Positions 29,509 through 58,308 of a stretch of 64,000 nt of DNA are shown here, in pieces (within the stretch, counting starts at the first letter, position 1; every line of letters starts with the position of its first letter). Origin of the DNA: Vulcanimicrobiota bacterium. Lineage in GTDB: Bacteria; Vulcanimicrobiota; Vulcanimicrobiia; Eremiobacterales; Eremiobacteraceae. Both the position numbers and the translations under genes were made by a program. The DNA is taken from positions 361,131-425,130 of the forward strand of contig CAVYXC010000004.1 in assembly GCA_963772515.1 (NCBI GenBank), in the 5' to 3' direction. The notes beneath the pieces are model-generated. The model was not told where the DNA came from, did not search any database, and saw only the letters and a list, made by a program, of their open reading frames with translations.

Positions 29509-30270
29509 ATGTCCGGGCATTCGAAATGGCACAATATCCGGCTCAAGAAGGGGAAGGTCGATGCGCAGCGCGGCCAGCTGTTCACCAAGCTGAGCAAAGA
29601 GATCATCGTCGCCGCCCGCTCGGGCGTGCCGGACCCCGAGGCGAATTTCAAGCTCAAGATCGCGGTGGCGAAGGCGCGCGACAGCAACATGCCGATGGAC
29701 AACATCAAGCGGGCGATCGCGCGCGCGAGCGGAACCGGCAAGGGCGAAACGTACGAAGAGATCCGCTACGAAGGGTTCGGCCCAGCCGGCGTCGCCGTGA
29801 TCGTCGACGTGGTGACCGACAACCGCAACCGCACGGCGTCCGAGATGCGCTACGTGTTCTCGCGTAACGGCGGCAATCTAGGCGAGACCGGCAGCGTCGG
29901 CTGGCTTTTCGAGGAACGCGGCGTCATCACGATTCCGGCGACCGGCATCTCGGAGGACGAGCTGCTCGAATGCGCGATCGTCGACGGCGTCGTCGACGTC
30001 GTGCTCGAGGGCGATAGCGCGGACATCATCACGCAGCCGCGCGCGCTCGGCCAGGTGCGCGCTGAAGTCGAGCGCACGCTGCTCGCACCGCGCGGCCGCA
30101 CGGTGACCTCCGCGTCGCCCGAACTCATAGCCAAGACCCACGTGGACGTCTCGCGCGAGAACGCGCCGGCGGTGCTCAAGCTGCTCGACGCGCTCGAAGA
30201 TCACGACGACGTCACGCACGTCTATTCCAACGCCGACATCCCTGTCGACGTGCTCGAAGCGCTCGCGTGA
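29509..30270 (+). CDS. yebC: YebC/PmpR family transcriptional regulator
   Basis: 253 aa; MSGHSKWHNI N-terminus characteristic. Confidence 0.85.
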   Translation: MSGHSKWHNIRLKKGKVDAQRGQLFTKLSKEIIVAARSGVPDPEANFKLKIAVAKARDSNMPMDNIKRAIARASGTGKGETYEEIRYEGFGPAGVAVIVDVVTDNRNRTASEMRYVFSRNGGNLGETGSVGWLFEERGVITIPATGISEDELLECAIVDGVVDVVLEGDSADIITQPRALGQVRAEVERTLLAPRGRTVTSASPELIAKTHVDVSRENAPAVLKLLDALEDHDDVTHVYSNADIPVDVLEALA

Positions 30271-31400
30271 GCGCACAAGAACCGCGCAGACGCCGGCGCA
30301 CCGTCGATTACGCGCCGCGCCCGCCACGCCCACCCCGTCCGCCGGCGAGCGGATCGCCCGCATTGGCCATCGCGCTGGGGCTGCTCGCCTTGCTCGTCGT
30401 GCTGGTCGCCGTCGGAGCGTACCGCCTGTTCGCGCCGGCCGGCAGCCCGATCATTCTGCCCGACTTCGGCGGGATGTCGATGGACGCTGCCCAAAGCGCG
30501 GCCTCCCACTTCGGCGTGAGCCTGCGCGTCGTCGCGCATCACAACGATGAGAAGATCGCCAAGGGCGACGTGCTCGGACAGTTCCCGGCGGCCGGAGAAC
30601 ACGTCCGTGAAGGACGCATCATCGACGTGATCGTCTCCGACGGTCCGACCCTATCCGACGTGCCCGATCTCGGCAATCTGTCGCTGCGCGATGCGCAGAT
30701 CGAGCTCGGCAACGCGCGCCTCGATCTCGGCACGGTGACGCGACAGAAGAGCGATCTCGTCTCGGAAGGCCGCATCCTCTCGCAGAATCCGGCGGCGCTC
30801 ACGCAGGCGCCGGCCGGCACGAAGGTGGACGTCACGGTGGCGCAAGGCAGGCCGGAGGCGTACGTGCCTAACTTCGTCGGCCTGAGCGTCGAGTTTTCGG
30901 CGAGCGCCGCCAAACAAGCCGGCGTTTCGCTCGGCCCGCCGCTGTGGCTGCCGATCGCCAAGAACGCCAAGCCACGCGGCATCGTGGTGGCCCAAGACCC
31001 GCTGCCCGGGCAGCCGATGGATGTGGGCGCAAAAGTCATCTTGCACGTCAGCGGTGGGCCGCCACCGACGCCGACGCCGTTGCCGACGCTGCCGCCGACG
31101 GAAGCCCCGATCATCACCACGCCGCTGCCGGTTTCGGCCTCGCCCAGCTCATCTCCGAATCCCCAGGCCAGCCCATCGGCCGAACCGGCAGCGCGCTCGA
31201 TGCGCATCCAAGTCGCGCTGCCGGCGTTGACGACCGCTAAACACGTGCGCGTCGCGCTCGTCGATGCCGCCGGTTCGCGCGATCTGTACGACCAGACCAC
31301 CAAGGGCGGCTTCACGCTGCAGTTCGACGTCACGGTCACCGGAGCCGGCACGGTTCAGACCTACATCGACGGCGTTCTGTCCACGACGAACGGGCTTTGA
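30267..31400 (+). CDS. Membrane-anchored PASTA-domain protein (three PASTA repeats, Pro/Ser-rich linker)
   Basis: 377 aa; TM anchor; repeated PASTA-like modules; GTGA overlap with yebC. Confidence 0.6.
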   Translation: MSAQEPRRRRRTVDYAPRPPRPPRPPASGSPALAIALGLLALLVVLVAVGAYRLFAPAGSPIILPDFGGMSMDAAQSAASHFGVSLRVVAHHNDEKIAKGDVLGQFPAAGEHVREGRIIDVIVSDGPTLSDVPDLGNLSLRDAQIELGNARLDLGTVTRQKSDLVSEGRILSQNPAALTQAPAGTKVDVTVAQGRPEAYVPNFVGLSVEFSASAAKQAGVSLGPPLWLPIAKNAKPRGIVVAQDPLPGQPMDVGAKVILHVSGGPPPTPTPLPTLPPTEAPIITTPLPVSASPSSSPNPQASPSAEPAARSMRIQVALPALTTAKHVRVALVDAAGSRDLYDQTTKGGFTLQFDVTVTGAGTVQTYIDGVLSTTNGL

Positions 31401-33116: not shown

Positions 33117-33308
33117 CTAGACGGCGCGGGTGACCCGCCGCGATTTCAGACACGTGGTGCACACGCGCGCGGTCTTCACCGTGCCGCGTTCTGTGATGCG
33201 CACCGATTGCAGGTTGGGCAGCCAGCGCCGGCGCGTCTTACGCATCGAGTGACTGACATTGTTGCCCGATGCGGGGCCTTTGCCGCAGACGTCGCAACGC
33301 TTTGCCAT
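33117..33308 (-). CDS. rpmB: 50S ribosomal protein L28
   Basis: 63 aa; [25 protein letters not shown]. Confidence 0.9.
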
Positions 33309-33389
33309 GAGGGGTTCCTCTCAAATGAACAAGAATGACCACGGTATAGTACCACACATCAGATAGCCGCTTCAAGAGGAAACGCCTGG

Positions 33390-35006
33390 GTGCAGATAAC
33401 CAGCTGCGACGGAAAGCTATTTGCCGATTTCCTCGTGGCCGGCACGTATTTCTTGCGCAAATACCGATCCGTGGTCAACGATCTCAACGTCTTCCCCGTG
33501 CCCGACGGCGATACCGGCACCAACATGTTCTTCACCGTCCGCTCGGCCATGGTCGAGGCCCATAAGGAGCGCTCCACGGCGCTCAAAGACGTCGCTGCCG
33601 CAGCCGCCCAGGGCTCGCTGATGGGGGCGCGCGGCAACTCGGGCGTCATCATCTCGCAGATGTTCCGTGGGTTCGCCTATGAGGTGCGCCATCGCGACGC
33701 CATCAACACGCTCGAATTCTCGAGCGCACTAGCCGAGGGCGTGAGCGCCGCGCGCAAAGCGCTGCTCAAGCCGGTCGAAGGCACGATCCTCTCGGTCGCA
33801 AGCGCCGCCGCGAACGCGTGCTTCAAAGCCGCAGCGGCCGAACCGGATTTTTACGCCGTCTTGCACGCGACCGTGGCGGCGGCAAACGAAGCGCTGGAGA
33901 AAACGCCGGAACAGCTGGCCATCCTCAAAGAAGCTAAAGTCGTCGACGCCGGCGGACAAGGGTTCGTGTACTTCATGGAGGGCATCTTGCGCATGTTGCC
34001 CGGCCGCGCGCCGTACACGACCGCATTTCCCCGCAATCCCGTCCGGCGCACGACGTTCACCGCCAAGCAGAAGGTCGAGACCCATCGCTTCTGCACCGAA
34101 TTCGTGCTCTCGAAGACGCAGACGGAGGCCGACTCGTTACGCGCGATGCTCACCCCGCATGGCGATTCGCTCATCGTCGCCGGCGGCGACGGCACGATCC
34201 GCGTCCACATCCACACCGATTATCCGGAGAAAGTCGCCGACGTGGCGCGCGAGCTCGGCGACGTCTCGCGCCTCAAGATCGATAACATGGAAGAGCAGCA
34301 CAACGTGCTGGTCGTCGATCGCGAATCCAAACCGCGCGGCATCGTCGCGGTGGCGCCGGGCGAAGGCTTCGCCAAGATCTTCAAGGAGCTGGGTGCCGAC
34401 GTCGTGGTGATCGGCGGGGCGACGATGAACCCGTCGGTCAAAGACCTGCTCGTGGCCGCCAACAAGGTGCTCGCGCCGGTCGTCTATCTCATGCCCAACG
34501 ACAAGAACATCGTGCTCGCCGCCAAAGAAGTCGACGCACTGACCGACAAGCGAGTCGTCGTCGTGCCCACGCGCACGGTGGCCGATGGCATCGCAGCGCT
34601 GTTCGGCCTGCTCAACCGGCCGGACGATCCAGCCGTCACGCCCGACGAGGCGCTCGCAGGTTCGGTCGTCGCAGGCAGCGGTTCGATCTTCCGCGCCGGC
34701 CGCGACGCCCAGATCGGCGGCGTGGCGGTCGAACGCAACCAGCTCGTCGGCGCATTGGAGGCGCGCGACGGCCAAACGGAACGCCTGGTTGAAGGAGCGG
34801 ATGCGGCAGCCATCGCAGTCGCGATGGTGCACGGCTCCGTCACCTCGGATCCGTCGCTGATCACGCTCTACTACGGGCACGCGCGCCGGCGCAAAGAGGC
34901 AGAAGCCATCGCGCACACGCTCAAAGAGACGTTCCCCGCATCGGCCGTCGAGGCGTACTACGGCGGCCAGCCGACATCGGATTACGTGGTTTCGATTGAA
35001 CGATAG
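33390..35006 (+). CDS. yloV: DAK2 domain fusion protein YloV
   Basis: 538 aa; Dak2 domain (DGDTGTNM) plus DegV-like C-terminal domain; Firmicutes-like rpmB-divergent position. Confidence 0.8.
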   Translation: MQITSCDGKLFADFLVAGTYFLRKYRSVVNDLNVFPVPDGDTGTNMFFTVRSAMVEAHKERSTALKDVAAAAAQGSLMGARGNSGVIISQMFRGFAYEVRHRDAINTLEFSSALAEGVSAARKALLKPVEGTILSVASAAANACFKAAAAEPDFYAVLHATVAAANEALEKTPEQLAILKEAKVVDAGGQGFVYFMEGILRMLPGRAPYTTAFPRNPVRRTTFTAKQKVETHRFCTEFVLSKTQTEADSLRAMLTPHGDSLIVAGGDGTIRVHIHTDYPEKVADVARELGDVSRLKIDNMEEQHNVLVVDRESKPRGIVAVAPGEGFAKIFKELGADVVVIGGATMNPSVKDLLVAANKVLAPVVYLMPNDKNIVLAAKEVDALTDKRVVVVPTRTVADGIAALFGLLNRPDDPAVTPDEALAGSVVAGSGSIFRAGRDAQIGGVAVERNQLVGALEARDGQTERLVEGADAAAIAVAMVHGSVTSDPSLITLYYGHARRRKEAEAIAHTLKETFPASAVEAYYGGQPTSDYVVSIER

Positions 35007-36012
35007 CGACGTCATCATCGCGATCGACGGCATGGGCGGCGACCTTGCGCCCGGCGCGATCGTCAATGGCGCCTGTCGCGCCGCGCGCGAATGGGGCTGC
35101 CGCATCTTGTTGGTGGGCGATCGCGCCGCGCTCGAAGCGCTGGTCAAACGCGACGGCGCGCCCGCGAACGTCACGATCGTCGCCACATCGGAAACGGTCG
35201 CGATGGACGAGGCGCCGGCGATCGCCGTGCGTCGCGGCGGCGTCACCTCGATGGGCAAGACGATCGATCTGGTGCGCGACGGCCAAGCGCACGCGGCGTT
35301 CTCAGCAGGCAACAGCGGCGCATTCCTCGCGCTCGCGACGATCCGTCTCTCGCGCTTGCCCGGCATCGCACGTCCTGGATTCGCCACCGCCTGGCCCGCG
35401 CACAAGGGGCCGATGTTGCTGGTGGATGCCGGTGCCAACGTCGATTGCAAAGCCGAGTGGCTCGTTCAATTCGCGATCATGGGCAGCGCGTACTCGCGCG
35501 CCGTGCTCGGCATTCCGAATCCAAAAGTGGGCTTGCTGTCGGTGGGTGAGGAGGAGAGCAAAGGCAACGCGCTGACCGCAGAGGCGTTTCCGCTGCTGTC
35601 AGCCGCGCCGATCAATTTCATCGGTAACGTCGAGGGCGGTGATCTGCTGCTCGGCGACGCAGACGTCGTGGTTGCAGACGGATTTGTCGGCAACGTCGCG
35701 CTCAAGACCGCTGAGGGCACGAGCGAGTACATCTTCAAATTGCTGCGCGAGGGCATCGACGAGGCGCCGATCCACGTGAAAGCCGGCGCGGCTTTATTGC
35801 GGCCGGTGTTCCGTGCCGTGCGCTCCCGCTTGGACCATCGTTATCACGGCGGCGCGCCGCTGCTCGGCGTGCGCGGCAATTGCATCATCGGCCACGGCCG
35901 CGCCGACGCGCTCACCGTCTATCACGCGTGCCAGATGGCATTGAGGGCTGCGCGCCAGGACCTCGTCGGTTCGATCGAGCGCATGCTCGCGCCCGCGGCA
36001 GCACAGGCATGA
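34996..36012 (+). CDS. plsX: Phosphate acyltransferase
   Basis: 338 aa; IAIDGMGGD motif; TTG start. Confidence 0.85.
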   Translation: MNDSDVIIAIDGMGGDLAPGAIVNGACRAAREWGCRILLVGDRAALEALVKRDGAPANVTIVATSETVAMDEAPAIAVRRGGVTSMGKTIDLVRDGQAHAAFSAGNSGAFLALATIRLSRLPGIARPGFATAWPAHKGPMLLVDAGANVDCKAEWLVQFAIMGSAYSRAVLGIPNPKVGLLSVGEEESKGNALTAEAFPLLSAAPINFIGNVEGGDLLLGDADVVVADGFVGNVALKTAEGTSEYIFKLLREGIDEAPIHVKAGAALLRPVFRAVRSRLDHRYHGGAPLLGVRGNCIIGHGRADALTVYHACQMALRAARQDLVGSIERMLAPAAAQA

Positions 36013-36848
36013 GCGCCAAAGTCGCGATCGTCACCGACTCGATCTGCGATCTCGGCGCCTTGGCGGTCGACATCACGGTCGTGCCGCTCACCATCACCTT
36101 CGGGGCCCAGCAGTTTCTCGACGGGGTCGATCTCACGCCCGAACAGTTCTACGACAAGCTCCAACACGATCCGAATCAGCCGACCACGTCACAGCCGACG
36201 CCGGCGTCGTTCGCCACCGAATACAAGCGCTTGTTGGACGCCGGCGCCGAGCACATCGTCTCGCTGCACGTGTCGGCAGCGCTGTCAGGCACGTTCAACT
36301 CTGCGTCGCTGGCCGCGCAGCAGGTGGCACCCGACCGCATCACGGTCATCGACACGCGCAACGCGTCCGCCGGCGAAGGACTGCTGGTGCTTGGCGCGCG
36401 CGACCAGGCCGCGCGCGGCGACTCGGCGCAGGCGATCGTCGAGCAGGCGCAGGCGGACATCCCTAACGATCAGCTGTACGCGGCGATCCCCAACCTGACG
36501 TATCTGGCGCGCGGCGGACGGATCGGGCCGCTGCAAAGCGTGCTTGGCAACGTGCTGCAGATCGTCCCCATCGTCACGCTCAAAGACGGCCTCGTCGCCG
36601 AACACACCAAGGTGCGCACGTTCGCACGCGCGGTGGACCAGATCATCGACATCGTCGCCTCCAAGGTTCCGCAGAAGAAGCATGCGCGTGCCGCAGTGAT
36701 GCACTCCGTCGCGCCAGAGCTCGCCGAGAAGGTGCGCAAACGCCTCGAGGAAGTCATCGAGCCGGCTTCGCTCATCACGACCTGCGCCGGACCGACGGTG
36801 GGCACGCACGCCGGCCCAGGCGCGGTGGGAGTGTTCTTCATACCCTGA
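36009..36848 (+). CDS. DegV family fatty-acid-binding protein
   Basis: Internal Met of ORF 35880..36848 (MSAKVAIVTDS...); ATGA overlap with plsX stop. Confidence 0.8.
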   Translation: MSAKVAIVTDSICDLGALAVDITVVPLTITFGAQQFLDGVDLTPEQFYDKLQHDPNQPTTSQPTPASFATEYKRLLDAGAEHIVSLHVSAALSGTFNSASLAAQQVAPDRITVIDTRNASAGEGLLVLGARDQAARGDSAQAIVEQAQADIPNDQLYAAIPNLTYLARGGRIGPLQSVLGNVLQIVPIVTLKDGLVAEHTKVRTFARAVDQIIDIVASKVPQKKHARAAVMHSVAPELAEKVRKRLEEVIEPASLITTCAGPTVGTHAGPGAVGVFFIP

Positions 36849-37327
36849 TGCGCAAGATCAACACGAAAGACATCACCGAGCTGACCTGGTCGTCGCCGAA
36901 GGGCAAGTTCGCCGGCGCAGGGCTGCAGATCTCAGAGGCCCTGGGGCGCAAGCCGCAATCGACCGATCTCAAGGAACGCCATCCGTTCGACGTCGAGATC
37001 ATGCGCATACCGGCCGGTAAGACCCCGTATCCGTATCACGCGCACAGCGCGCAATGGGAGTTCTATCACGTGATCTCCGGCAGCGGCAAGGTACGTCATA
37101 AGGATGGCACCGACGCGATCGAAACCGGTGATGCGTTCATCTTCGAGCCGGACCAGCCGCACCAGCTGATCAACGACGGCGCGGTCGACCTCGTCATGTA
37201 CGTGGTGGCGGACAACCCGATCGGCGAGTATGGATATTATCCCGACAGCGACAAACATATCGTGCGCACGCCTGCGCGCAAACTGCTGCGCTCCGAATCG
37301 CTCGACTACTTCGACGGAGAAGAGTGA
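36848..37327 (+). CDS. Cupin domain protein
   Basis: 159 aa; two-His cupin motif region (YPYHAHSAQWEFYHVISG). Confidence 0.55.
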   Translation: MRKINTKDITELTWSSPKGKFAGAGLQISEALGRKPQSTDLKERHPFDVEIMRIPAGKTPYPYHAHSAQWEFYHVISGSGKVRHKDGTDAIETGDAFIFEPDQPHQLINDGAVDLVMYVVADNPIGEYGYYPDSDKHIVRTPARKLLRSESLDYFDGEE

Positions 37328-38502
37328 GCCCGCGCGCGGCCGGCTGTTACGTCCACCTGCCGTTTTGCGATCGCATCTGCCCGTACTGCGACTTCGCGGT
37401 AGTCGAGTTCGCGCGTCCGCGCGTCGAACGCTACTTGAAGGCCGTCCACGCCGAGCTGGCGCGCACCCCGGCTGATCGCGAGCTTGCGTCGCTCTATCTC
37501 GGCGGCGGCACGCCTTCGGCGCTGAGCGCCGACGACATCGCAGCCCTGCTGTCCGCCATCTTCAAGCATTTCGACGTCGAGCCGGGCTCCATCGAGTGCA
37601 CGCTTGAGGCCAATCCGTCGCGCAACGCCGGCGATCTCGGCCGCTACCGCAACGCCGGAGTGAATCGGCTGTCGGTCGGTGTCCAGTCGTTTGACGACGC
37701 AGAGCTGCATCGGCTTGGACGCGATCACAGCGCCGCTCAGGCGCAGGCGTATATCGGCGCTGCGCGTGCAGCCGGTCACCGCAACATCGGCATCGATGTG
37801 ATCGCCGGAGCGCCCGGACAGACAATGGCGTCGTTTGAGCTGACACTGAAACGTACCATCGAATGCGCGCCCGAGCACGTCTCCGTGTACGGGTTGACGA
37901 TCGAGGCCGCAACGCCGTACGCGCGCTGGTTCGCGCGCGCGCCGCACGAATTTCCCGATGACGACGCCACCGCCGATCTGCTCGAACTCGCCGAAAGCGA
38001 GCTGACAGCTGCCGGTTTTTCGCGCTACGAGATCTCCAACTATGCCAAAGCTGGTTTTGAGAGCGAGCACAATCGCGGATATTGGGAGCAGCGCGCGTGC
38101 GTGGCGCTGGGCATGTCGGCGTCGGGCTACGAAGACGGCCGGCGCTTTCGGAATCTTCGCTCCTTTAATGCCTACTGCGCGGCTATCGAAGCCGGGATTT
38201 CAGCGCAGGAAGAAGAGGAACGGCTCGATTTTGAGGCGCGCCTGGGCGAGGCAGCCATGCTGAGCCTGCGCACGCGCGAAGGCATACGGGACGGGGAGTT
38301 CCGCGCCCGATTCGGGGCCGATCCACGCACGGCTTTCGCCGCCGCAATCGATAAATGTCGCCGGGCAGGCCTGCTCGAAGAGGACAGCCAGGGGGTACGG
38401 CTCTCGGCGCGGGGGAGGCTTCTGGCCAACACCGCGTGTTCTGAATTCTTACATCCTTCATTCATACCGGCCCCCGCCGGAATTGGGAAAACTACTTCTT
38501 AG
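37324..38502 (+). CDS. hemW: Radical SAM heme chaperone HemW
   Basis: 392 aa; CxxxCxxC (CDRICPYCDF); GTG start overlapping upstream stop. Confidence 0.8.
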   Translation: MSPRAAGCYVHLPFCDRICPYCDFAVVEFARPRVERYLKAVHAELARTPADRELASLYLGGGTPSALSADDIAALLSAIFKHFDVEPGSIECTLEANPSRNAGDLGRYRNAGVNRLSVGVQSFDDAELHRLGRDHSAAQAQAYIGAARAAGHRNIGIDVIAGAPGQTMASFELTLKRTIECAPEHVSVYGLTIEAATPYARWFARAPHEFPDDDATADLLELAESELTAAGFSRYEISNYAKAGFESEHNRGYWEQRACVALGMSASGYEDGRRFRNLRSFNAYCAAIEAGISAQEEEERLDFEARLGEAAMLSLRTREGIRDGEFRARFGADPRTAFAAAIDKCRRAGLLEEDSQGVRLSARGRLLANTACSEFLHPSFIPAPAGIGKTTS

Positions 38503-39538
38503 AATAATTTTCGCGCTGTTGTGCGGGCTGCTCGGCTTGGCTGCCGGGATCGAGCTCGGGCGCATTCCTGCGCTCGCAAGCCAGACCGGCACGCTGGCGC
38601 ATCTGCGCGACATCGGCATTCCGACGCTCATCGCGCTCATCGGCGTGGCGATCTCGCCGTATCTGGCCACCGGCTTCGAACGAGTGTCGAGCGCGTTCGA
38701 AGATTCGATCGTGAGCATGGCCCCCGCCGAGGCGCTCTCAGGCGCGATCGGTCTGGTCATCGGGTTGATCGTCGCGTTCTTGGTGCGCGATGTTTTCCAA
38801 CCCATCAATCAGATGCCGCGCTTCGGCCCGATCATCTCGATCGTCGTCTACATCCTTATCACGCTGTTCTTCGCGTACACAGGGCTGCGCATCGGCGTGC
38901 GCCAGCGCTTGTCGAGCTGGGTGCGCACCGGTCCGCGCGACGGTGCAGCGCCGCCCAAACTGCTCGACACCTCGGTCATCGTCGACGGCCGCGTGCTCGA
39001 AGTCGTGCAGGCGGGCTTCATCGAGGGCCGGCTGCTCGTGCCGAAATTCGTGCTCAAAGAACTGCAGTCGATCGCGGACTCGTCCGACTCCATGCGCCGC
39101 GCGCGCGGCCGGCGCGGGCTGGAGATCCTCAATCGCCTGCGCGAGATATCGGGCAGGCTGGAGATCATCGACAAGGATGCGCCCGAGCGCGACGTCGACA
39201 GCAAGCTGGTGACGCTGGCGCGCGAGCTCGAAGCGCCGATCCTGACCAACGATTACAATCTCAACCGCGTCGCGCGCCTGCAAGGCGTGACGATCCTCAA
39301 CGTCAACGAGCTCGCCAACGCCATCAAGCCGGTGGTGCTGCCCGGCGAAGAGATGTCGGTCAACATCGTCAAGGACGGCAAGGAGCAGAACCAAGGCGTC
39401 GGCTACCTCGAGGACGGCACGATGATCGTCGTCGAGAACGGCAAGCGGCTCATCGGCGAGACCGTCGGCGTGCAGGTGACGTCTGTGCTGCAGACCGCAG
39501 CGGGCCGCATGATCTTCGCCAAGCCCAAAAAAGCGTGA
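38483..39538 (+). CDS. yacL: PIN/TRAM domain membrane protein (YacL-like)
   Basis: 351 aa; N-terminal TM region, PIN-like and C-terminal TRAM-like domain; precedes ispD as in Bacillus. Confidence 0.7.
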   Translation: MGKLLLRIIFALLCGLLGLAAGIELGRIPALASQTGTLAHLRDIGIPTLIALIGVAISPYLATGFERVSSAFEDSIVSMAPAEALSGAIGLVIGLIVAFLVRDVFQPINQMPRFGPIISIVVYILITLFFAYTGLRIGVRQRLSSWVRTGPRDGAAPPKLLDTSVIVDGRVLEVVQAGFIEGRLLVPKFVLKELQSIADSSDSMRRARGRRGLEILNRLREISGRLEIIDKDAPERDVDSKLVTLARELEAPILTNDYNLNRVARLQGVTILNVNELANAIKPVVLPGEEMSVNIVKDGKEQNQGVGYLEDGTMIVVENGKRLIGETVGVQVTSVLQTAAGRMIFAKPKKA

Positions 39539-40224
39539 ACGCCGCCGCGATTCTGGCCGCCGCGGGTCGCGGCGACCGGCTCGGCAGGCCCAAGCAGTTG
39601 CTCGACCTCGCGGGCAAGCCGATGGCGGCGTGGTCGCTGGAGCTGTTCGAGCGCACCCCGGCGATCGAGGCCGTCTACATCGCGTGCGAGGCGGACGAGC
39701 GCGAGCGCTTCGAGGCGCTCGCGAAAGAATACGCACCGTCAAAAACGGTCATCGTCGTCGCCGGGGGCGCGACGCGTCAAGCCTCCGTGCACGCGGCGCT
39801 ATCGGTCGTGCCGCCCACCTCGCACCTCGTGCTGGTGCACGACGGCGCGCGCCCCTTCGTCACGCTCGACATCGTGGAGCGGACGATAGCAGCCGCGCAT
39901 CACGGCGTCAGCGCCATCGCCGCCGTGCCGGTGAAAGACACGATCAAACAGGCGCGTGAAACCGCGGTGGTCCGCACGATCCCGCGCTCGACGTTGTGGG
40001 CCGCCCAGACGCCACAAGTCTTCCCCTACGACGTTCTCGTCGCCGCGCATGACCGTGCGATCGCGGACCGGGTGGTGGACACCGACGACGCTGCGCTCGT
40101 CGAGCGCCTCGGCGCCCCCGTGAACCTGGTCATGGGCTCGTACGCCAACATCAAGATAACGACGCCTGAGGATTTCGAGATCGCGCTGTGGATCGCGCAG
40201 CGCATGGAGGCCGCCCGCCGATGA
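39535..40224 (+). CDS. ispD: 2-C-methyl-D-erythritol 4-phosphate cytidylyltransferase
   Basis: C-terminal part of ORF 38521..40224 (VNAAAILAAAGRGDRLG...); GTG start in GTGA overlap with yacL stop. Confidence 0.85.
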   Translation: MNAAAILAAAGRGDRLGRPKQLLDLAGKPMAAWSLELFERTPAIEAVYIACEADERERFEALAKEYAPSKTVIVVAGGATRQASVHAALSVVPPTSHLVLVHDGARPFVTLDIVERTIAAAHHGVSAIAAVPVKDTIKQARETAVVRTIPRSTLWAAQTPQVFPYDVLVAAHDRAIADRVVDTDDAALVERLGAPVNLVMGSYANIKITTPEDFEIALWIAQRMEAARR

Positions 40225-40700
40225 GAGTCGGCTTCGGATTCGACGCGCACCGGCTGGTCGCCGATCGCCCGCTGGTCCTAGGCGGCGTGCGCATCGCTTT
40301 CGATAAAGGCCTCGAGGGTTTTTCGGATGCCGACGTGTTGACGCATGCGGTCATCGACGCGGTGCTCGGCGCCGCAGCCCTGGGCGATTGCGGTTCGCGC
40401 TTTCCGGCGGGCGACCCGAAGTACGCCAACGCGAACAGCATCAAACTGCTGGAGCAAGCATTCACCTTGCTGCGCCATGCGAATCTGCGCGTGGGCAATC
40501 TGGATTGCACGATCGTCGCCGAACGCCCGGCTTTAGCCGGCCATCTGAACGCCATGCGCGCAATGCTCGCCAACGCGCTTGAGATCGCCGAAGCCGACTG
40601 CAGCGTCAAGGCCAAGCATACCGAGGGGCTCGGATTTACGGGTACAGGCGAAGGTATGGCGGCATACGCGGTGGCGACCGTCGAGGCATCAACCCCTTGA
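40221..40700 (+). CDS. ispF: 2-C-methyl-D-erythritol 2,4-cyclodiphosphate synthase
   Basis: Internal Met of ORF 40188..40700 (MRVGFGFDAHRL...); ATGA overlap with ispD stop. Confidence 0.9.
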   Translation: MRVGFGFDAHRLVADRPLVLGGVRIAFDKGLEGFSDADVLTHAVIDAVLGAAALGDCGSRFPAGDPKYANANSIKLLEQAFTLLRHANLRVGNLDCTIVAERPALAGHLNAMRAMLANALEIAEADCSVKAKHTEGLGFTGTGEGMAAYAVATVEASTP

Positions 40701-40720
40701 CCCCCGGGCCCCGACCAGAT

Positions 40721-40746
40721 ATGGAGCGGTCGAATAAATTCGACCG
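40721..40746 (+). repeat. Copy e of palindromic element (ATGGAGCGGTCGAATAAATTCGACCG) at 5' end of gltX
   Basis: Consensus with AA spacer; encodes MERSNKFDR in gltX frame. Confidence 0.75.
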
Positions 40747-42253
40747 CGCCGAAGAGATCGCCGACGATCGTCGCTCGGGTTCCGTGCGCGTGCGCTTCGC
40801 ACCGGCGCCGACCGGCTCGCTGCACGTCGGGGGCGCCCGCACCGCGCTCTTCAATTATCTCTATGCGCGCAAGAACAACGGCGCGCTGGTGCTTCGCTCC
40901 GAGGACACCGACGTCGGCCGCTCGACGCTCGAGTCCGAGCGCGCGATCCAGGATGATCTGCGCTGGCTCGGGCTGAGCTGGGACGAAGGCACGGATGTCG
41001 GCGGCCCGTATGGACCATATCGCCAGACCGATCGCACCGACCGATACGGCCTCGCGGCCGCGCGGCTGCTCGAGATCGGCAACGCGTACTTGTGCTATTG
41101 CACGCCGCAAGAACTCGAAGCGGAGCGCAAAGAGGCCGAGCGACACGGCCAAGCGCCTAAGTATTCAGGCAAGTGCCGCGAGCTCACGCGCGAACAGCGC
41201 GCGGCGCTGGAAGCGGAAGGCCGCAAGCCGGCGGTCCGCTTCATCATGCCGCAGCGCGACATCTACGTCGAAGATCTCGTGCGCGGGTCGGTGCATTTCC
41301 CGGCCGGCTCGATCGGCGATTTCGTCATCATGAAATCGGATGGCAATCCTGCGTATAATTTCGCCGCCGTCGTCGACGACGCCGAGATGGCGATCACCCA
41401 CGTGATCCGGGCAGATGAACATCTTCCCAACACGCCGCGCCAAGCGGTGCTCTACGAGGCGCTCGACTTGCCGCTGCCGCTCTTCGCCCACGTCTCGATG
41501 ATCCTCGCGCCGGATCACCAGAAGCTGTCCAAGCGCCACGGCGCGACGTCGGTTGCCGAGTACCGCGAACAGGGCTACCTGCCCGCCGCGCTTATCAACT
41601 ATCTGGCGCTGCTCGGGTGGTCGCCGGGCGACGATAGCGAATTCTTCACTCTCGACGAACTCGTGGGACGATTCTCGCTTGAGCGCGTGACCAAGAGCCC
41701 GGCGGTGTTTGATCATGGCAAGCTGCGTTGGTTCAACGCGCATTACTTGCGCGCGCTGCCCCGCGACGACCGGGCGGAACTGTTCGCGGCGTGGGCACAG
41801 CGCGATCCCGAAGTGACGTCGTCAGTCGATATCAACGATCCGTTGTGGCGCGGCTTGTTCGCCGACGCGATGAGCGATCACGTCGAAACGCTGGACCAGG
41901 TCCCGGCGCTGGCCAAGCAGGTTCTCACGGACGAAATCCGCATCGCACCAGAATCTCGCGACGCGCTGTCGGACAGCGGGTCGCGAGCGCTCGTCGAGGA
42001 CCTCGCGGGCATCGCGGCAGGCTGCAGAGATCGCGTCGCGTTCAGCGCAGCGACCTCAAAGGAAGCACTGGCTGCGCTTGGAGCCAAACACGGCGTGAAG
42101 GGTCGAGCGTTGTTCAGGCCGATTCGCATCGCTGCGACCGGCGACGAACACGGCGTCGAGCTCCCAATTCTCTTGCCGCTTCTCGGTCCCGCCCGACTGG
42201 CCTCGCGCCTGCGCTCGTCGTTGAATCAGACGGGCGCTTCCGCCAGCTCGTAG
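40721..42253 (+). CDS. gltX: Glutamate--tRNA ligase
   Basis: ORF 40697..42253; VRVRFAPAPTGSLHVGGARTALFNY motif; start either ATG 40721 (inside palindromic element) or TTG 40697. Confidence 0.85.
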   Translation: MERSNKFDRAEEIADDRRSGSVRVRFAPAPTGSLHVGGARTALFNYLYARKNNGALVLRSEDTDVGRSTLESERAIQDDLRWLGLSWDEGTDVGGPYGPYRQTDRTDRYGLAAARLLEIGNAYLCYCTPQELEAERKEAERHGQAPKYSGKCRELTREQRAALEAEGRKPAVRFIMPQRDIYVEDLVRGSVHFPAGSIGDFVIMKSDGNPAYNFAAVVDDAEMAITHVIRADEHLPNTPRQAVLYEALDLPLPLFAHVSMILAPDHQKLSKRHGATSVAEYREQGYLPAALINYLALLGWSPGDDSEFFTLDELVGRFSLERVTKSPAVFDHGKLRWFNAHYLRALPRDDRAELFAAWAQRDPEVTSSVDINDPLWRGLFADAMSDHVETLDQVPALAKQVLTDEIRIAPESRDALSDSGSRALVEDLAGIAAGCRDRVAFSAATSKEALAALGAKHGVKGRALFRPIRIAATGDEHGVELPILLPLLGPARLASRLRSSLNQTGASASS

Positions 42254-42260
42254 GAGCGCC

Positions 42261-42806
42261 ATGGCGGAGCTGACGCGCGCGCGCTTTCTGGGGTTTGTAG
42301 CCGCGACATTCGGCATCGCTGAGATGTCGGAGCGGGCGAGTGCGGCAGTGAAGATTGAGGACCCCACTGGTTTCACCTTTGGTCCGATGGTGAAGGACCT
42401 CGCGCTCGGCGTGAAACTCGAAAACCAGGCCGTTGACGTCGGTGCGCCAATCGCGTGCACGTTGGCCATAAAGAATTTCGGGCCGCCGCGACACATCTTC
42501 CGGGTCGGCGCGATGGAAGAATACGCGCTCACGGGCACCGGTCCGCGTGGTGCTTCGATCGAGCACGCTGGTCCCGGTGACCCCTTCGCCGGGAGCATCT
42601 CCGCCGATGGACCCTACCTCGAGACTGGGCAGGCATACGAGAAGAGTACAGCCGATCTCCGTAAGAGCTACGATTTCAGCGCGCCAGGCGAGTACACGTT
42701 TTCATTTGCAACCGTGATCACCCAAGGCCTGGGAGGTCCCTGGTATGCGGCCTTGACGTCGAACACCGTGACGTTGGACGTGCGCAATGCGGCGACACAA
42801 CCTTGA
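42261..42806 (+). CDS. Hypothetical secreted protein
   Basis: 181 aa; hydrophobic N-terminus with RxR motif; no recognised domain. Confidence 0.4.
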   Translation: MAELTRARFLGFVAATFGIAEMSERASAAVKIEDPTGFTFGPMVKDLALGVKLENQAVDVGAPIACTLAIKNFGPPRHIFRVGAMEEYALTGTGPRGASIEHAGPGDPFAGSISADGPYLETGQAYEKSTADLRKSYDFSAPGEYTFSFATVITQGLGGPWYAALTSNTVTLDVRNAATQP

Positions 42807-43023
42807 CGGCGACTCGCTTCCAGCAGGCCGGAGGGCGGCCACGCCTAGCGCGCGAACCCATTGTCATCATGGCCACCGCAGACAACCCTGCCCTCCCCCG
42901 CCCGGCCATCGCCCCGTCCTGTCGTTGTTGACCGGCGCTTACGCCACGCCCGGTCGCGCGCCCGCCGCGCGCATGTGAAAGAAGAAGCCCGCGCGACGCG
43001 CGGGATGCGAGCAGGACGAAACC

Positions 43024-43701
43024 ATGCAACGAGACTCCATCTTCCGGCAGATACGCCTCGACTGGCGCGCGTGCTTTGAGCGCGACCCCGCGGCGCGCAA
43101 CTGGCTCGAAGTGCTGCTGGCCTATCCGGGTTTTCATGCCCTCTTCTGGCACCGGCTGATCATCCATCCGCTGCACCGCGCCGGCATACCCGTCATTCCG
43201 CGCGTGCTGTCCAACATGTCGCGGTTTTTCACCGGCATCGAGATCCACCCGGGCGCGGAGATCGGCTCGGGTCTGTTCATCGATCATGGCATGGGCGTCG
43301 TGATCGGCGAGACGACCGAGATCGGGCGCAACTGCACGCTCTATCAAGGCGTGACCTTGGGCGGCACGTCGCTGCAGCGCGGCAAGCGCCACCCGACGCT
43401 TGAAGACAACGTCATCGTCGGCGCCGGCGCCGGCATCATCGGCGCGGTGGTCATCGGCGCCGGTTCGAAGATCGCGGCGGGGGCGGTCGTCGTCAAATCG
43501 GTCCCGCCGAACTGCACGGTTGTCGGTGTGCCTGGCCGCGTGATCTATCAGGACGGCAAGCCGGCCGAACCGGTGTTGCCGCGTGTGGACATGCCCGACC
43601 CCGAAGCGGACGCGATCGCCGCGCTGCAGCAACGGGTCGAGGCGCTCGAGATGGGCTTCCGAAAGCTCGAAGAGCCGGATGGCAGTAAGACTCTACAATA
43701 G
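43024..43701 (+). CDS. cysE: Serine O-acetyltransferase
   Basis: 225 aa; hexapeptide repeats; SAT N-terminal domain. Confidence 0.85.
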
Positions 43702-45152
43702 CCGCACCCGGTCCCTCGAAGAGCTCCAGCCGCTCGAACCCGGGCGGCTGACGATGTACGTGTGCGGCATGACGCCCAGTTTTCACCCGCATCTGGGTCA
43801 CGCGCGCACGTTCTTGACGTTCGACGTCTTGCGCCGTCACCTCGCCGCGCGCGGCTACAAGGTCGACTACGTCCAAAACGTCACCGATATCGACGACCGC
43901 ATCATCGAGCGCGCCGCCACCGAAGGCGTGCCCTGGGACGACGTTGCCACTCGTTATCTGGCGGAGTACGAGGCGTGCGCCACAGCGGCTCGGGCTTATA
44001 CCGCCCGATGACGAACCGCGCGCGACTCAGGAAATCTCTTCCATTATAGAGCTCATCTCGGGGCTCGTCGCCAAGGGCGCGGCGTACGAGTCGGGAGACG
44101 GCGTCTATTTCGCGGTGGACGAGGGCGTATTTCCGCATTACGGTGAGCTCAGCCACCAGAGCATCGAAGAACTGCGCGCCGGCGTGCGCGTCGCCGTGCG
44201 CGAGGATAAGCGCGGGCGGTTGGACTTCGCGTTGTGGAAGAAGGCCAAGCCCGGCGAGCCGAGCTGGCCGAGCCCCTGGGGCCCCGGCCGGCCGGGCTGG
44301 CACATCGAGTGCTCGGCAATGGCGCGCAAGTATCTCGGGGATCAGATCGACATCCATGGCGGCGCCGCCGACTTGATCTTTCCGCACCACGAGAACGAAG
44401 TCGCGCAGACCGAGACGTTCACCGGCAAGCATCCGATGGCGAATTTCTGGGTGCATGCGGGATTGCTCAACGTCGACGGTCAGAAGATGAGCAAGTCGCT
44501 TGGCAACTTCACGCCGCTCACCCAGATGCTCGACCGCTATCCGGCGGCCGTGATCCGCTACCTGTTCCTGCAGACCGGCTATCGCAAACCGAGCAACTTC
44601 ACGGCTGACTCGATCGAAGCGGCGGGCAAGGGATTGCGCGGGCTGTACGCCGACCTCGACAAACTCCGCGCCCGCGCGCGCCTAAACCCCATGGAGCGGT
44701 CGGATTCATCCGACCGGCAACGTGAGAGCGCGATCGAAGAATTCAACGCATTTCTCGATGACGACCTGAACACCGCGGGCGCCATCGGCTGGCTGCAGAC
44801 CTATGTGAAGCCTTCGATTAAAGATCGTACAGGGGCCGATGTTGTTGCCGTCGTCGAGCAGGCGCTCGAACGGCTTGGCCTGCCGGTGGACGCCGAGAAC
44901 GCCGGCGTCGCTGCGACGTCATCGCAGCTCAAGTTGAGCAAAGCGGCGCGCATGGAGTTCTCGATCATCACCGGCGATCGCGACGCACCCGACGACGACT
45001 TGGTCTCAAAGGTCGTCGCGATCCGCGAAAAGGCGCGCAAGTCCAAAGATTGGGCGCAGTCGGATCGTCTGCGCGACGCGCTCGCGCGCGCGGGCATCGC
45101 GGTCAAAGACACCGCGACGGGTTCGCAGTGGAGCGTCGATGGCGGCAGATGA
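43679..45152 (+). CDS. cysS: Cysteine--tRNA ligase, interrupted by apparent +1 frameshift near 43980-43990
   Basis: N-part in ORF 43583..44011 (MAVRLYNSR...HLGHART), remainder in ORF 43944..45152 (PPDDEPRAT..., KMSKS); removing one nt around 43984 restores a continuous class-I motif alignment; contains in-frame element copy f. Confidence 0.75.
44691..44716 (+). repeat. Copy f of palindromic element (ATGGAGCGGTCGGATTCATCCGACCG) in-frame inside cysS
   Basis: Arms carry compensatory A>G/T>C changes preserving perfect 9-bp inverted repeat; encodes [10 protein letters not shown]. Confidence 0.75.
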
Positions 45153-45888
45153 CGAGACGATCTCCGGCATCCACTCGGTGACGGAGGCGCTCGCGGCCGG
45201 TGAAGCGGTCAAGAGCGTCATCATCGCGCAGCACCGCCGCAGCGACGCCGCCCTGCAAGAGCTCATCGCAGCGGCGAAGCATCGCGGCGTGCCGGTCCAC
45301 ACCGAGCCCGAATCTTGGTTCAAACGCTTTGGGGACGCGCGCCATCAACATGTCGCCGCACGCGTCGCTCCATTCGCGTACGCGGACTGGGCGGACACGC
45401 GACGCACGTTGGCGGAAAAACCCGACGCGCTGATCGCGGTGGTCGATCACGTCGAAGATCCGCAGAACCTCGGCGCCATCATGCGTGCGGCCGAAAGCGC
45501 CGGCGCCGACGCGCTGGTGATCCCCGACCGCCGCAGCGCCGGCGTGACCGCCGCGACCAGGCGGGCGGCCGCCGGGGCTGCCTCGCATCTGCCGATCGCC
45601 GCTGTCCCGAATTTGGTCAGAGTGCTTGAAGACCTCAAAGCCGACGGCCATTGGGTGTACGGCCTCGCCGGCACCCCAAACGCACGCCTATACACCGACG
45701 TCGATTTCCGTGGAAAATGCACGCTCGTCGTCGGGAGCGAGGGCAAAGGCTTGGCCCACCTGGTTTCGCAGCGCTGCGACGAGCTGGTCAAGATCCCCAT
45801 GCGCGGCAAGGTCGCTTCACTGAATGCGGCGGCAGCGAGCGCCGTGGTCCTGTACGAGGTGGTGAGACAACGCGCCAAAGGCTTGTGA
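45139..45888 (+). CDS. rlmB: 23S rRNA (guanosine-2'-O)-methyltransferase RlmB (YacO-like SpoU)
   Basis: 249 aa; SpoU motifs; position after cysS as in Bacillus. Confidence 0.8.
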   Translation: MAADDETISGIHSVTEALAAGEAVKSVIIAQHRRSDAALQELIAAAKHRGVPVHTEPESWFKRFGDARHQHVAARVAPFAYADWADTRRTLAEKPDALIAVVDHVEDPQNLGAIMRAAESAGADALVIPDRRSAGVTAATRRAAAGAASHLPIAAVPNLVRVLEDLKADGHWVYGLAGTPNARLYTDVDFRGKCTLVVGSEGKGLAHLVSQRCDELVKIPMRGKVASLNAAAASAVVLYEVVRQRAKGL

Positions 45889-45917
45889 TTAGCGGCACGA
45901 GCCCGTCCCGTAAATCC

Positions 45918-45946
45918 TTGACGAAAGAGGAGCCTCCCCCTATAAT
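45918..45946 (+). promoter_or_regulatory. Sigma-A/sigma-70 consensus promoter for sigH: -35 TTGACG (45918-45923), 17-nt spacer, -10 TATAAT (45941-45946)
   Basis: Perfect hexamers with optimal spacing, 64 nt upstream of sigH start; RBS GGAGG at about 45994. Confidence 0.6.
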
Positions 45947-46009
45947 CGGTAGGGCACATAACACAGGCATAATCATGCCGAGAAGCAGGGCCGGAGGTTC
46001 ATCAACAAC

Positions 46010-46657
46010 TTGGGGGCACTTCACCAAACGGAAGAAACCCTGGACTACAGCGAGCGAGCGGACGAAGAACTCGTCAATGCGGCCAAGTGCGGCGACAATC
46101 TGGCCATGGAGTTTCTGCTCAACAAGTACAAGAACTTCGTCCGTATCAAAGCCAAGAGCTACTTCCTCATCGGCGCAGACCGCGAAGACATCATCCAGGA
46201 AGGCATGATCGGCCTCTACAAGGCCGTGCGCGACTTCCGGGCCGATAAGCTGTCGTCGTTCCGCGCCTTCGCGGAGCTGTGCATCACGCGTCAGATCATC
46301 ACGGCCATCAAGACGGCCACGCGGCAGAAGCACATCCCGCTCAACCAGTACATCTCGCTCAACAAGCCGATCTACGACGAGGACAGCGAGCGCACGCTGC
46401 TCGACGTCATGGCGAGCGCGAAGATGTCGGATCCGGAAGAGCTGGTCATCAATCAGGAAGTCTCAGAAGACATCAAGGAGCGGATCCAGGAGAACCTGAG
46501 CGACCTCGAGTCGCAGGTGCTGCTGAGCTATCTCGAGGGCAAATCGTACCAAGAGATGGCGCGCGATCTCAACCGGCATGTCAAGTCGATCGACAACGCG
46601 CTCCAGCGCGTCAAGCGCAAGATCGAGAAGAACCTGAGCGAGGTCGAGCTCTACTAA
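46010..46657 (+). CDS. sigH: RNA polymerase sigma factor SigH (Spo0H-type)
   Basis: 215 aa; very high similarity to Firmicutes SigH (FLIGADREDIIQEGMIGLYKAVRDF, ELCITRQIITAIKTATRQKHIPLN, NRHVKSIDNALQRVKRK); position after rlmB as in Bacillus. Confidence 0.85.
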   Translation: MGALHQTEETLDYSERADEELVNAAKCGDNLAMEFLLNKYKNFVRIKAKSYFLIGADREDIIQEGMIGLYKAVRDFRADKLSSFRAFAELCITRQIITAIKTATRQKHIPLNQYISLNKPIYDEDSERTLLDVMASAKMSDPEELVINQEVSEDIKERIQENLSDLESQVLLSYLEGKSYQEMARDLNRHVKSIDNALQRVKRKIEKNLSEVELY

Positions 46658-46681
46658 GGCACGCGACAATCCAGCCACGTA

Positions 46682-46713
46682 GGACCCGAGCCACGCTCGG
46701 GTCCTTTCATTTC
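46682..46713 (+). terminator. Rho-independent terminator after sigH
   Basis: GGACCCGAGC-cac-GCTCGGGTCC stem followed by TTTCATTTC. Confidence 0.65.
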
Positions 46714-46789
46714 GGCTCCGCGCCGAAGAGGACCGCAGTGGAGCCTAGCGCAAAAGGACGGTCCCGTTTCTCACAAGGGGCGAATCAAC

Positions 46790-57976: not shown

Positions 57977-58016
57977 GGCCGGCGGCTCTGCGTGCCGCCG
58001 GTCTCTCTTTTTTCGC
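57977..58016 (+). terminator. Rho-independent terminator after receptor-like gene
   Basis: GGCCGGCGGC-tctgcgt-GCCGCCGGTC stem followed by TCTCTCTTTTTT. Confidence 0.7.
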
Positions 58017-58027
58017 CCGGCTGTGCT

Positions 58028-58093
58028 CGGAGAGGAAGGAACGGACACGCGTCAGAACGCGTGAAACCCTGTTCACGCGATAGCAGTCGCGAC
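58028..58093 (+). repeat. Copy 1 of about 55-65 bp repeat containing inverted repeat CGCGTGAA-N4-6-TTCACGCG, upstream of small gene 58117
   Basis: Near-identical to 59228..59336 copy. Confidence 0.6.
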
Positions 58094-58116
58094 ACCGGAA
58101 ATAGGAAGTTTGTAGG

Positions 58117-58308
58117 ATGATCCGCGTTGGTGATCATGTCGTCGTGCGCGGCGAAGATGAGGAAGCAATCGTGACCGCAGTGCATCCCGACTCACAAGTA
58201 GAGATCGAGTACCTTCACGCATCGGCTAGCGGCGCGCGGCGCAAACGCTACGCCGCGGAGGCGCTTGAGGTCATCGAGGGCGGTCGCGGCGAGCGGTCAC
58301 AGGGTTGA
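58117..58308 (+). CDS. Hypothetical small protein
   Basis: 63 aa; AGGAAG RBS-like 13 nt upstream. Confidence 0.35.
   Translation: MIRVGDHVVVRGEDEEAIVTAVHPDSQVEIEYLHASASGARRKRYAAEALEVIEGGRGERSQG

Follow-up and report, generated by a model that had tools for sequence, protein, structure and literature searches.

A sigma-H orthologue at the end of a Bacillus-like gene block in DNA assigned to the Eremiobacterota

The window analysed here, a 64,000-nucleotide stretch of contig CAVYXC010000004.1 (assembly GCA_963772515.1), carries sigH, a gene for a sigma factor of the sigma-H (Spo0H) type, at the end of a Bacillus-like block of genes. Genes were called from Pfam and NCBIfam scans, and the order of the block is rpmB on the minus strand followed by fakA/yloV-plsX-degV-cupin-hemW-yacL-ispD-ispF-gltX-ORF181-cysE-cysS-rlmB-sigH, with a gene for a PASTA-only protein, rpe and thiL on its 5' side (Pfam/NCBIfam). 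The genes and signals of the block are listed below, where ORF stands for open reading frame and GC3 for the GC content at third codon positions.

33117-33308, minus strand: rpmB, ribosomal protein L28 (Pfam Ribosomal_L28, E 2e-22)
33390-35006, plus strand: fakA/yloV, Dak2 fatty-acid kinase subunit A (Pfam Dak2, FakA-like_M and FakA-like_C)
34996-36012, plus strand: plsX, phosphate acyltransferase (Pfam FA_synthesis, E 4e-99)
36009-36848, plus strand: degV/fakB, fatty-acid-binding protein (Pfam DegV, E 3e-79, from ORF residue 47)
36848-37327, plus strand: Cupin_2 protein, which breaks the Bacillus-like order (Pfam Cupin_2, E 6e-14)
37324-38502, plus strand: hemW, radical-SAM heme chaperone (NCBIfam TIGR00539, 260 bits against a cut-off of 205)
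38483-39538, plus strand: yacL-type PIN and TRAM protein (Pfam PIN, E 1e-7; TRAM, E 1e-6)
about 39544-40224, plus strand: ispD (Pfam IspD, E 3e-62, residues 342-558 of ORF 38521-40224)
40188-40700, plus strand: ispF (Pfam YgbB, E 6e-59)
40697-42253, plus strand: gltX, glutamyl-tRNA synthetase (Pfam tRNA-synt_1c, E 9e-102)
42261-42806, plus strand: ORF181, 181 aa (GC3 0.71; signal-like N-terminus MAELTRARFLGFVAATFG)
43024-43701, plus strand: cysE, serine acetyltransferase (Pfam Hexapep and SATase_N)
43679-45152, plus strand: cysS (Pfam tRNA-synt_1e, split across two reading frames)
45139-45888, plus strand: rlmB, 23S rRNA Gm2251 methyltransferase, yacO in Bacillus (NCBIfam TIGR00186, 205.6 bits against a cut-off of 160)
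45918-45946, plus strand: sigma-70-type sigH promoter (TTGACG, 17-nt spacer, TATAAT; 11 of 12 consensus positions)
46010-46657, plus strand: sigH, sigma-H/Spo0H orthologue of 215 aa with a TTG start (NCBIfam SigH models)
46681-46715, plus strand: intrinsic-terminator-like hairpin with an 11-bp stem and a T-rich tail, 3' of the sigH stop

In all of its testable features the sigma factor is a genuine member of the SigH family. It scores 362.1 bits with NF006148 (cut-off 208), 351.5 bits with NF006145 (cut-off 212) and 341 bits with TIGR02859 spore_sigH (cut-off 294.8), and the next unrelated sigma models reach at most 83 bits; these profile scores identify it as a true SigH orthologue and not as a member of an extracytoplasmic function (ECF) or other sigma-70 clade. 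Like sigma-H of Bacillus subtilis (RPSH_BACSU, whose sequence was confirmed by exact look-up), which has 218 aa, it consists in Pfam terms of Sigma70_r2 and Sigma70_r4_2 only, and it has neither region 1.1 nor region 3. Both proteins align without a gap over 197 residues with 67% identity and 87% similarity. Regions 2.3-2.4 (SF[RK]AFAELCITRQIITAIKTATRQKHIPLN) and 4.2 (LNRHVKSIDNALQRVKRK), through which the factor recognises the -10 and -35 elements, are essentially unchanged, so that the near-identity in key regions claimed in an earlier sequence-only reading of this DNA was confirmed. The best match in the PDB is 3mzy, a ‘sigma-H factor’ fragment (E 1.6e-28). The exact protein, with M at the TTG start, is already deposited, among other records, as GenBank HME82779.1 / MBV8081395.1 under the name ‘RNA polymerase sporulation sigma factor SigH’, and as the GenBank pipeline already uses this name, what we describe is a known family in a further phylum. 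The GC3 of sigH (0.86) matches the codon bias of its host. Judged from its sequence, sigH is a complete and expressible gene with conserved DNA-reading regions. A full-text literature search, in which ‘sigh’ mostly matched unrelated words, found no paper on SigH in Eremiobacterota or Armatimonadota.

The leader of sigH has 61 nt, and translation begins with a TTG codon. Because the gene has its own promoter upstream and a terminator after the stop codon, sigH forms a monocistronic, self-contained transcription unit. Its position after cysS-rlmB and its own sigma-A/sigma-70-type promoter are further features shared with B. subtilis sigma-H. The adjacency of rlmB (ending at 45888) and sigH (starting at 46010) recurs in some 70 loci that belong to three phyla. 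As cysS overlaps rlmB and the 121-nt gap between rlmB and sigH holds the promoter alone, mrnC and yacP are indeed absent between cysS and sigH, as had been read from the sequence before.

In order to place the locus among its relatives, the sigma factor was searched against one genome per GTDB species, and 82 loci were fetched (labelled L001 onwards) and compared with the window proteins by tblastn. In 33 of these loci SigH is 84–98% identical to that of the window, and nearly all of the 33 are named as Eremiobacterota taxa (Vulcanimicrobiota, Candidatus Eremiobacteraeota, Baltobacteraceae, Elarobacter, Lustribacter, Cybelea and Vulcanimicrobiaceae). The next matches come from Armatimonadota and unclassified metagenome-assembled genomes (MAGs) with 75–81% identity, followed by Bacillota with 70–78%. 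The block yacL-ispD-ispF-(gltX)-cysE-cysS-rlmB-sigH is collinear in about 27 Eremiobacterota loci; it also occurs in 4 Armatimonadota or unclassified loci, there without cysE or gltX, and in about 35 Bacillota loci such as those of Paenibacillus, Desulfosporosinus, Alicyclobacillus and Desulforudis. The Firmicutes-type order proposed by the sequence-only reading therefore holds in so far as eight genes are arranged and oriented alike in about 35 Bacillota loci, a match far beyond chance. However, the cupin gene, hemW and ORF181 break this order, and it is not characteristic of Firmicutes, since Armatimonadota share the arrangement too. Actinobacteria likewise keep the ispD-ispF-cysS-rlmB core, where we take Rv3582c-Rv3579c of Mycobacterium tuberculosis to be its counterpart; on this basis the Bacillus-like part of the block would be confined to its two ends, yacL and sigH.

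The Bacillota cluster reads yacL-ispD-ispF-gltX-cysE-cysS-(mrnC)-rlmB-(yacP)-sigH-rpmG-secE-nusG-rplK, and from yacL to sigH the window shows the same order and orientation (e.g. Paenibacillus L068 and Desulfosporosinus L059). It differs from this cluster by the lack of mrnC and yacP, by ORF181 between gltX and cysE, and by the cupin-hemW pair that joins it to the upstream rpmB, fakA-plsX-degV block, which in B. subtilis lies elsewhere. It also differs from the B. subtilis sigH locus in that rpmG-secE-nusG does not follow sigH. Nor were nusG or rplK found downstream of sigH in the window, whereas in 4 Eremiobacterota loci nusG-rplK lies 1.4–10 kb 3' of sigH as in Bacillota. The probe sequences for both genes proved valid in 13 Bacillota loci; the sites in Eremiobacterota are L039 12068-13042 (1.4 kb from sigH), L020 6240-7837, L018 18780-19974 and L024 20286-20636. 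This downstream nusG-rplK is a remnant of the sigH-rpmG-secE-nusG-rplK arrangement of Bacillota. On the 5' side rpmB is divergent from fakA, comparable to rpmB and yloU-yloV in B. subtilis, and 72–79% identical to its counterpart in 8 Eremiobacterota loci. HemW bridges the two Bacillus-like blocks and is kept at this place in 21 Eremiobacterota loci; several loci of the phylum also keep rpe-thiL-rpmB(-)-plsX-hemW 5' of the block. In Bacillota and Armatimonadota loci the corresponding place is taken by a gene whose product shares about 50% identity with YacL. A T-box precedes cysE-cysS in Bacillus; none was found ahead of cysE-cysS in the window by Rfam scan.

Some loci deviate from this picture. 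In L001 sigH (10001-10666) stands outside the block, close to rpoZ and surrounded by small unassigned ORFs, and rlmB is missing from the 10 kb around it; in L012 rlmB and sigH are about 8 kb apart. GltX is absent between ispF and cysE in most Eremiobacterota loci and present in the window, in L003 and in Bacillota; the window protein shows a median identity of 47% to Bacillota GltX versus 36% to the gltX-like gene of L008 and L013-L015, which could reflect paralogy or gene replacement. The Baltobacteraceae locus L006 contains a near-identical 24-nt sequence, AGG[TA]ATCGAAG[GC]ACCCTGAGGAAT, three times, at 160-237(-) and 7378-7401(+), which may be a small repeat element.

The proteins of the block have diverged to very different degrees. 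The median identity of SigH to the window protein is 90% within the phylum, 79% for Armatimonadota and 74% for Bacillota, whereas its neighbours reach only 46% (cysS), 46% (rlmB), 52% (ispF), 60% (cysE) and 75% (L28) within the phylum, and to Bacillota their medians are 38–54% with an individual range of 32–62%. Inside each phylum SigH is 84–99% identical as opposed to 43–60% for the neighbours, and even in L003, the nearest relative, SigH is 98% identical and the neighbours only 55–76%. These comparisons indicate extreme purifying selection on SigH, which would therefore have an important, conserved function.

The promoter of sigH could be aligned in all 33 Eremiobacterota loci examined. It has the form TTGAC(G)-17/18-TATA(A/C)T about 60–100 nt 5' of sigH in L002-L032 and L067, and TTGAC(G)-17/18-TATAAT is also found 5' of sigH in Armatimonadota and most of the sampled Bacillota loci. 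In Eremiobacterota the promoter spacer itself is conserved, which is unusual, and in most cases it holds an inverted repeat (AGGAGG..CCTCCT or GGAGGG..CCCTCC) that borders directly on the -10 element and may be a candidate repressor operator. Furthermore, a structured sigH leader of about 50 nt is present in L002, L004-L032 and L067 (e.g. L022, about 7245-7322) and absent from the window and L003. It consists of a 6-bp outer helix around a GC-rich hairpin, often followed by a short U-run. Compensatory changes were observed in 9 of its 14 predicted pairs, 93.7% of the cells are paired versus 85.4% in shuffled alignments and 27–51% in slid controls, and the observed covariation was reached by none of 500 shuffles. 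In Rfam the sigH leader of the window had no match and the L022 leader a match at chance level only, and we regard the structured leader as a candidate for a new cis-regulatory RNA of sigH with no Rfam family.

The sequence-only reading had also reported three TonB-dependent-receptor-like proteins of 1080–1240 aa and a PASTA protein. The corresponding features are:

14919-18161, minus strand: TonB-dependent-receptor-like protein, 1080 aa (Pfam CarboxypepD_reg, Plug and TonB_dep_Rec_b-barrel)
54225-57953, plus strand: TonB-dependent-receptor-like protein, 1242 aa (Pfam CarboxypepD_reg and Plug)
61249-63003, plus strand: third CarboxypepD_reg and Plug ORF, 584 aa (Pfam; GC3 0.58; overlaps ORF 62699-63610)
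30267-31400, plus strand: membrane-anchored PASTA protein with three repeats and no kinase domain (three Pfam PASTA matches; directly 5' of rpe)

Only two full-length receptors were found. In the 1080-aa protein Plug scores 25.5 bits (cut-off 23.9) and the barrel 56.8 bits (cut-off 27); in the 1242-aa protein Plug scores 24.1 bits (cut-off 23.9), and the barrel model PF00593 matches most of its homologues and not the protein directly. Both have signal-peptide-like N-termini. Receptors of the CarboxypepD_reg-Plug-barrel type are abundant in Acidobacteriota and Bacteroidota, and the pair in the window resembles them in having a signal peptide, a carboxypeptidase-regulatory-like domain, a plug and a large beta-barrel. 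Unlike them, it belongs to a large family native to Eremiobacterota: the homologues of the 1242-aa receptor are 44–100% identical, and of those with a taxon name all but one are assigned to Eremiobacterota. The 584-aa ORF looks short, truncated or broken. Two other large proteins were ruled out as receptors by Pfam, the 1117-aa protein at 25412-28765, which is a PMT-family glycosyltransferase, and a 1016-aa protein with BNR/sortilin repeats.

The genome itself, that of a soil bacterium, is best assigned to Candidatus Eremiobacteraceae (Eremiobacterota, also WPS-2 or Vulcanimicrobiota) and not to the Firmicutes, because exact protein records, the 33 closest loci and the relatives of the receptors all point there. 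For SigH, L28, the cupin protein, rlmB, the SPFH protein as well as both receptors, identical sequences are deposited in NCBI/ENA. The named SigH records belong to Candidatus Eremiobacteraceae or Candidatus Eremiobacteraeota, and for L28 and the 1242-aa receptor, whose exact records carry no taxon name, the named members of the 90% clusters are mostly Candidatus Eremiobacteraceae; three cluster members, two of them of L28, stand under other taxon names. All SigH matches of at least 84% identity are from Eremiobacterota, and Bacillota reach at most 78% for SigH and 32–62% for the neighbours. NCBI taxonomy places Candidatus Eremiobacteraceae in Bacillati; Vulcanimicrobiota; Vulcanimicrobiia; Candidatus Eremiobacterales. 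The proposal of a high-GC, probably diderm lineage within the Terrabacteria was thus right (the NCBI kingdom is Bacillati), whereas a Firmicutes-related or Limnochordia-like position was not; the fallback of ‘another deep Terrabacteria group’ fits Eremiobacterota by the protein records, the 33 relatives and a separate SigH group. The GC content is lower than the 67% first stated, namely 63.6% for the window and 64.8% within 33117-46657. Both the diderm and the high-GC character of the phylum are already published: Vulcanimicrobium alpinum, its only isolate, has an outer membrane covered with lipopolysaccharide (LPS) and 68.4% GC and is non-spore-forming (PMC9758169), and WPS-2 genomes encode LPS synthesis and BamA, the phylum being placed near Chloroflexi, Armatimonadetes and Dormibacteria (PMC6664022). 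The host of this SigH therefore differs from that of B. subtilis sigma-H in being diderm, high in GC, outside the Bacillota and from a phylum whose only isolate does not sporulate.

Several other features of the window deserve mention. The start of degV is likely the ATG at 36009, inside ORF 35880-36848, as read from the translation. ORF181 had no family match in Pfam or NCBIfam and is missing between gltX and cysE in the nearest relative L003 and in all other loci compared, which marks it as a putative lineage-specific insertion between these two genes. In cysS a frame shift lies near 43965-43985: model positions 2-85 fall into ORF 43583-44011 and positions 88-299 into ORF 43944-45152, so that the first 99 residues are encoded in a frame that closes at 44011, and the remainder follows from about 43983 in the other frame. 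The cysS orthologue of L003 is intact. Since cysS and receptor genes are split in long-read relatives such as L002 as well, an indel of the assembly is the likelier explanation, ahead of a pseudogene. No tRNA gene was found in the window with ARAGORN, and the whole window had no match in Rfam at the gathering threshold.

The presence of a PASTA protein with three repeats and no kinase domain was confirmed. It matches only positions 326-563 of the 563 positions of PknB_PASTA_kin, with 113.6 bits against a cut-off of 450, and is not a PrkC/PknB kinase; its ORF begins at the stop codon of yebC, which leaves no room for a kinase domain. At this place, upstream of rpe, we take Bacillus to have prkC-cpgA. 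The last part of the window (58001-64000) has a GC content of 55–58% and a GC3 of about 0.5–0.65 versus about 0.8 elsewhere, with short and overlapping ORFs, and may be a foreign or decaying region. Three DUF4760 paralogues are found at 82-666(+), 2414-2983(-) and 50387-50911(-), one of them between an amidohydrolase gene and the gene for a 140-aa HATPase_c_2 protein (an RsbW/SpoIIAB-like anti-sigma-type kinase) at 1946-2368(-), with no STAS or sigma gene nearby. Genes for a carboxyltransferase, an enoyl-CoA hydratase, a biotin carboxylase with a biotinyl domain and a 3-hydroxy-3-methylglutaryl-CoA (HMG-CoA)-lyase-like protein at 4595-10464 form an apparent leucine/isovalerate catabolism cluster; their true starts lie further downstream, as the listed ORFs overlap heavily (e.g. 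7598-9565 with 9223-10464).

As to its function, SigH would bind core RNA polymerase and direct it to sigma-H-type promoters (RNAGGAWWW, 11–12 nt, RNNGAAT), and would thereby turn on a transition-phase or starvation programme, possibly with DNA uptake, rather than endospore formation. A role outside sporulation is suggested because the isolate of the phylum is non-sporulating and no sporulation-specific gene was found among the Pfam/NCBIfam-scanned proteins of the 64-kb window. No competence genes were seen near sigH. SigH of Staphylococcus aureus, which controls competence genes, is an example of SigH in a non-sporulating Firmicute, and by analogy the Eremiobacterota might likewise keep a sigma-H factor without endospores, with competence or transition-state control as the model. 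SigH proteins of non-sporulating Firmicutes are strongly diverged from B. subtilis SigH, and the SigH of Eremiobacterota is unlike them in being hyper-conserved (84–99% in the phylum, 74% to Bacillota).

Taking the evidence together we consider it highly probable that the window is native Eremiobacteraceae DNA and that sigH and its block were inherited from an ancestor shared with Bacillota. A Bacillus-type order and a SigH orthologue, next to high GC and outer-membrane receptor genes, would also be expected from a high-GC diderm member of the Bacillota of the Limnochordia type, but the exact protein records are mostly named Candidatus Eremiobacteraceae, the close relatives are all Eremiobacterota, and Bacillota including Symbiobacterium show only 70–78% identity for SigH and 32–62% for its neighbours. 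The Bacillus-like block is no sign of a Firmicute either, because it is found throughout the Eremiobacterota and is present in Armatimonadota. Neighbour joining of 80 SigH sequences (198 alignment columns; Kimura distances; 200 bootstrap replicates) separates Bacillota from non-Bacillota with 97% support and puts the window on the non-Bacillota side, with 100% each for Eremiobacterota including the window and for Armatimonadota together with the unclassified sequences, so that we give a Limnochordia-like origin hardly any credence. Just as implausible to us is a chimeric or mis-binned contig in which a Firmicutes-like segment with sigH was joined to a Gram-negative segment with the receptors. 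The end of synteny directly 3' of sigH and the lower GC and GC3 of the last 6 kb could be taken for such a joint, but the coding frames have a uniform GC3 of 0.74–0.88 from 0 to 58 kb on either side of sigH, the receptors upstream and downstream of sigH are recorded on the same contig of 425,130 bases as rlmB, the named relatives of the receptor at 54225-57953 are almost all Eremiobacterota, and CarboxypepD_reg/Plug receptor genes also lie no more than 10 kb from sigH in related genomes, among them multi-megabase contigs and complete chromosomes.

It is harder to set apart common descent from an ancient transfer, by which the ancestor of Eremiobacterota (and Armatimonadota) would have gained sigH or the whole yacL-sigH block from Bacillota. 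Such an event might explain why SigH is 70–78% identical to Bacillota while the flanking housekeeping proteins show 38–54%, and why the window gltX is nearer to Bacillota (47% median) than to the gltX-like gene of four Eremiobacterota loci (36%); in addition, the relationships within Bacillota are not resolved in the tree, so that the root could lie there. However, SigH is equally hyper-conserved inside each phylum, and its high identity across phyla thus speaks for slow evolution and not for recency. The gene has the codon bias of the host and occurs with the same promoter in every sampled Eremiobacterota family, the phyla separate at 97–100% support, and the essential neighbours diverge between phyla as usual, which shows that the block was not recently imported. 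Host-like codon bias, phylum-wide presence, shared promoter and ordinary divergence of the neighbours all point to a sigH that was already present in the common ancestor, or at most to a single transfer of great age, and away from a recent import; we judge the transfer improbable. Both the regulator and its locus hence seem to predate the Firmicutes as well as endospore formation.

Some observations weigh against inheritance from a common ancestor or against the function proposed for SigH. The tree is unrooted, comprises about 200 columns and has a Bacillota sample biased to query-like sequences; being short, unrooted and built from the sequences closest to the query, it is compatible with a single, very old transfer. 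The genes 3' of sigH are not conserved, even in comparison with L003, and when the receptors, the SPFH and TPR proteins and further flanking ORFs of the window were compared with the 82 loci by tblastn, no useful match emerged. In contrast to B. subtilis sigma-H, no sigma-H-type promoters were detected in the window: the B. subtilis consensus gave 0 strict matches and 1 relaxed match in the 64 kb, which is chance level. In 606 kb of Eremiobacterota loci, a sample too small to reveal a regulon of a few dozen promoters per genome, 4 strict matches versus 2.0 expected were found and thus no enrichment, while the same strict scan of the Bacillota loci gave 29 matches versus 11.9 expected. The evidence on sporulation genes, spo0A and the sporulation-specific sigma factors included, covers the 64-kb window alone. 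SigH orthologues of non-sporulating Firmicutes serve competence and not sporulation, and spoVR and anti-sigma kinases are widespread outside spore formers; both facts count against the possibility that in Eremiobacterota a cryptic differentiation of the endospore type, or another spore-like one, is under the control of SigH. Such a role could draw on the DNA-recognition regions conserved with a sporulation sigma factor, on the SpoIIAB/RsbW-like HATPase_c_2 protein at 1946-2368 and on spoVR reported in built-environment Eremiobacterota MAGs (PMC11484240), but as the sole isolate of the phylum is non-spore-forming (PMC9758169) and the 64-kb window has no sporulation-specific gene, we regard it as very unlikely.

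In summary, sigma-H is usually regarded as a Firmicutes regulator that tops the sporulation and competence cascades, and here a hyper-conserved SigH orthologue was found at the same locus and with the same promoter type in two diderm phyla outside the Firmicutes. A tentative scenario, which we put forward as possible rather than probable, is that sigma-H and its locus were present in a diderm, non-sporulating ancestor of Bacillota, Armatimonadota and Eremiobacterota, where they ran a starvation or transition regulon, perhaps with DNA uptake, that was later co-opted by Firmicutes for endospores; Eremiobacterota might still run the ancestral regulon via the conserved promoter and operator and, in most families, the structured leader. 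The finding bears on the role of sigma-H before sporulation and on the position of Bacillota versus other Terrabacteria in the diderm/monoderm debate. For annotation it is a warning that neither the label ‘sporulation sigma factor SigH’ nor a Bacillus-like gene order makes a genome that of a Firmicute or a spore former. As V. alpinum is in culture, the ancestral regulon would be directly testable, and the sigH described here, ordinary as it is for Eremiobacterota, is a testable pointer to the history of sigma-H before sporulation.

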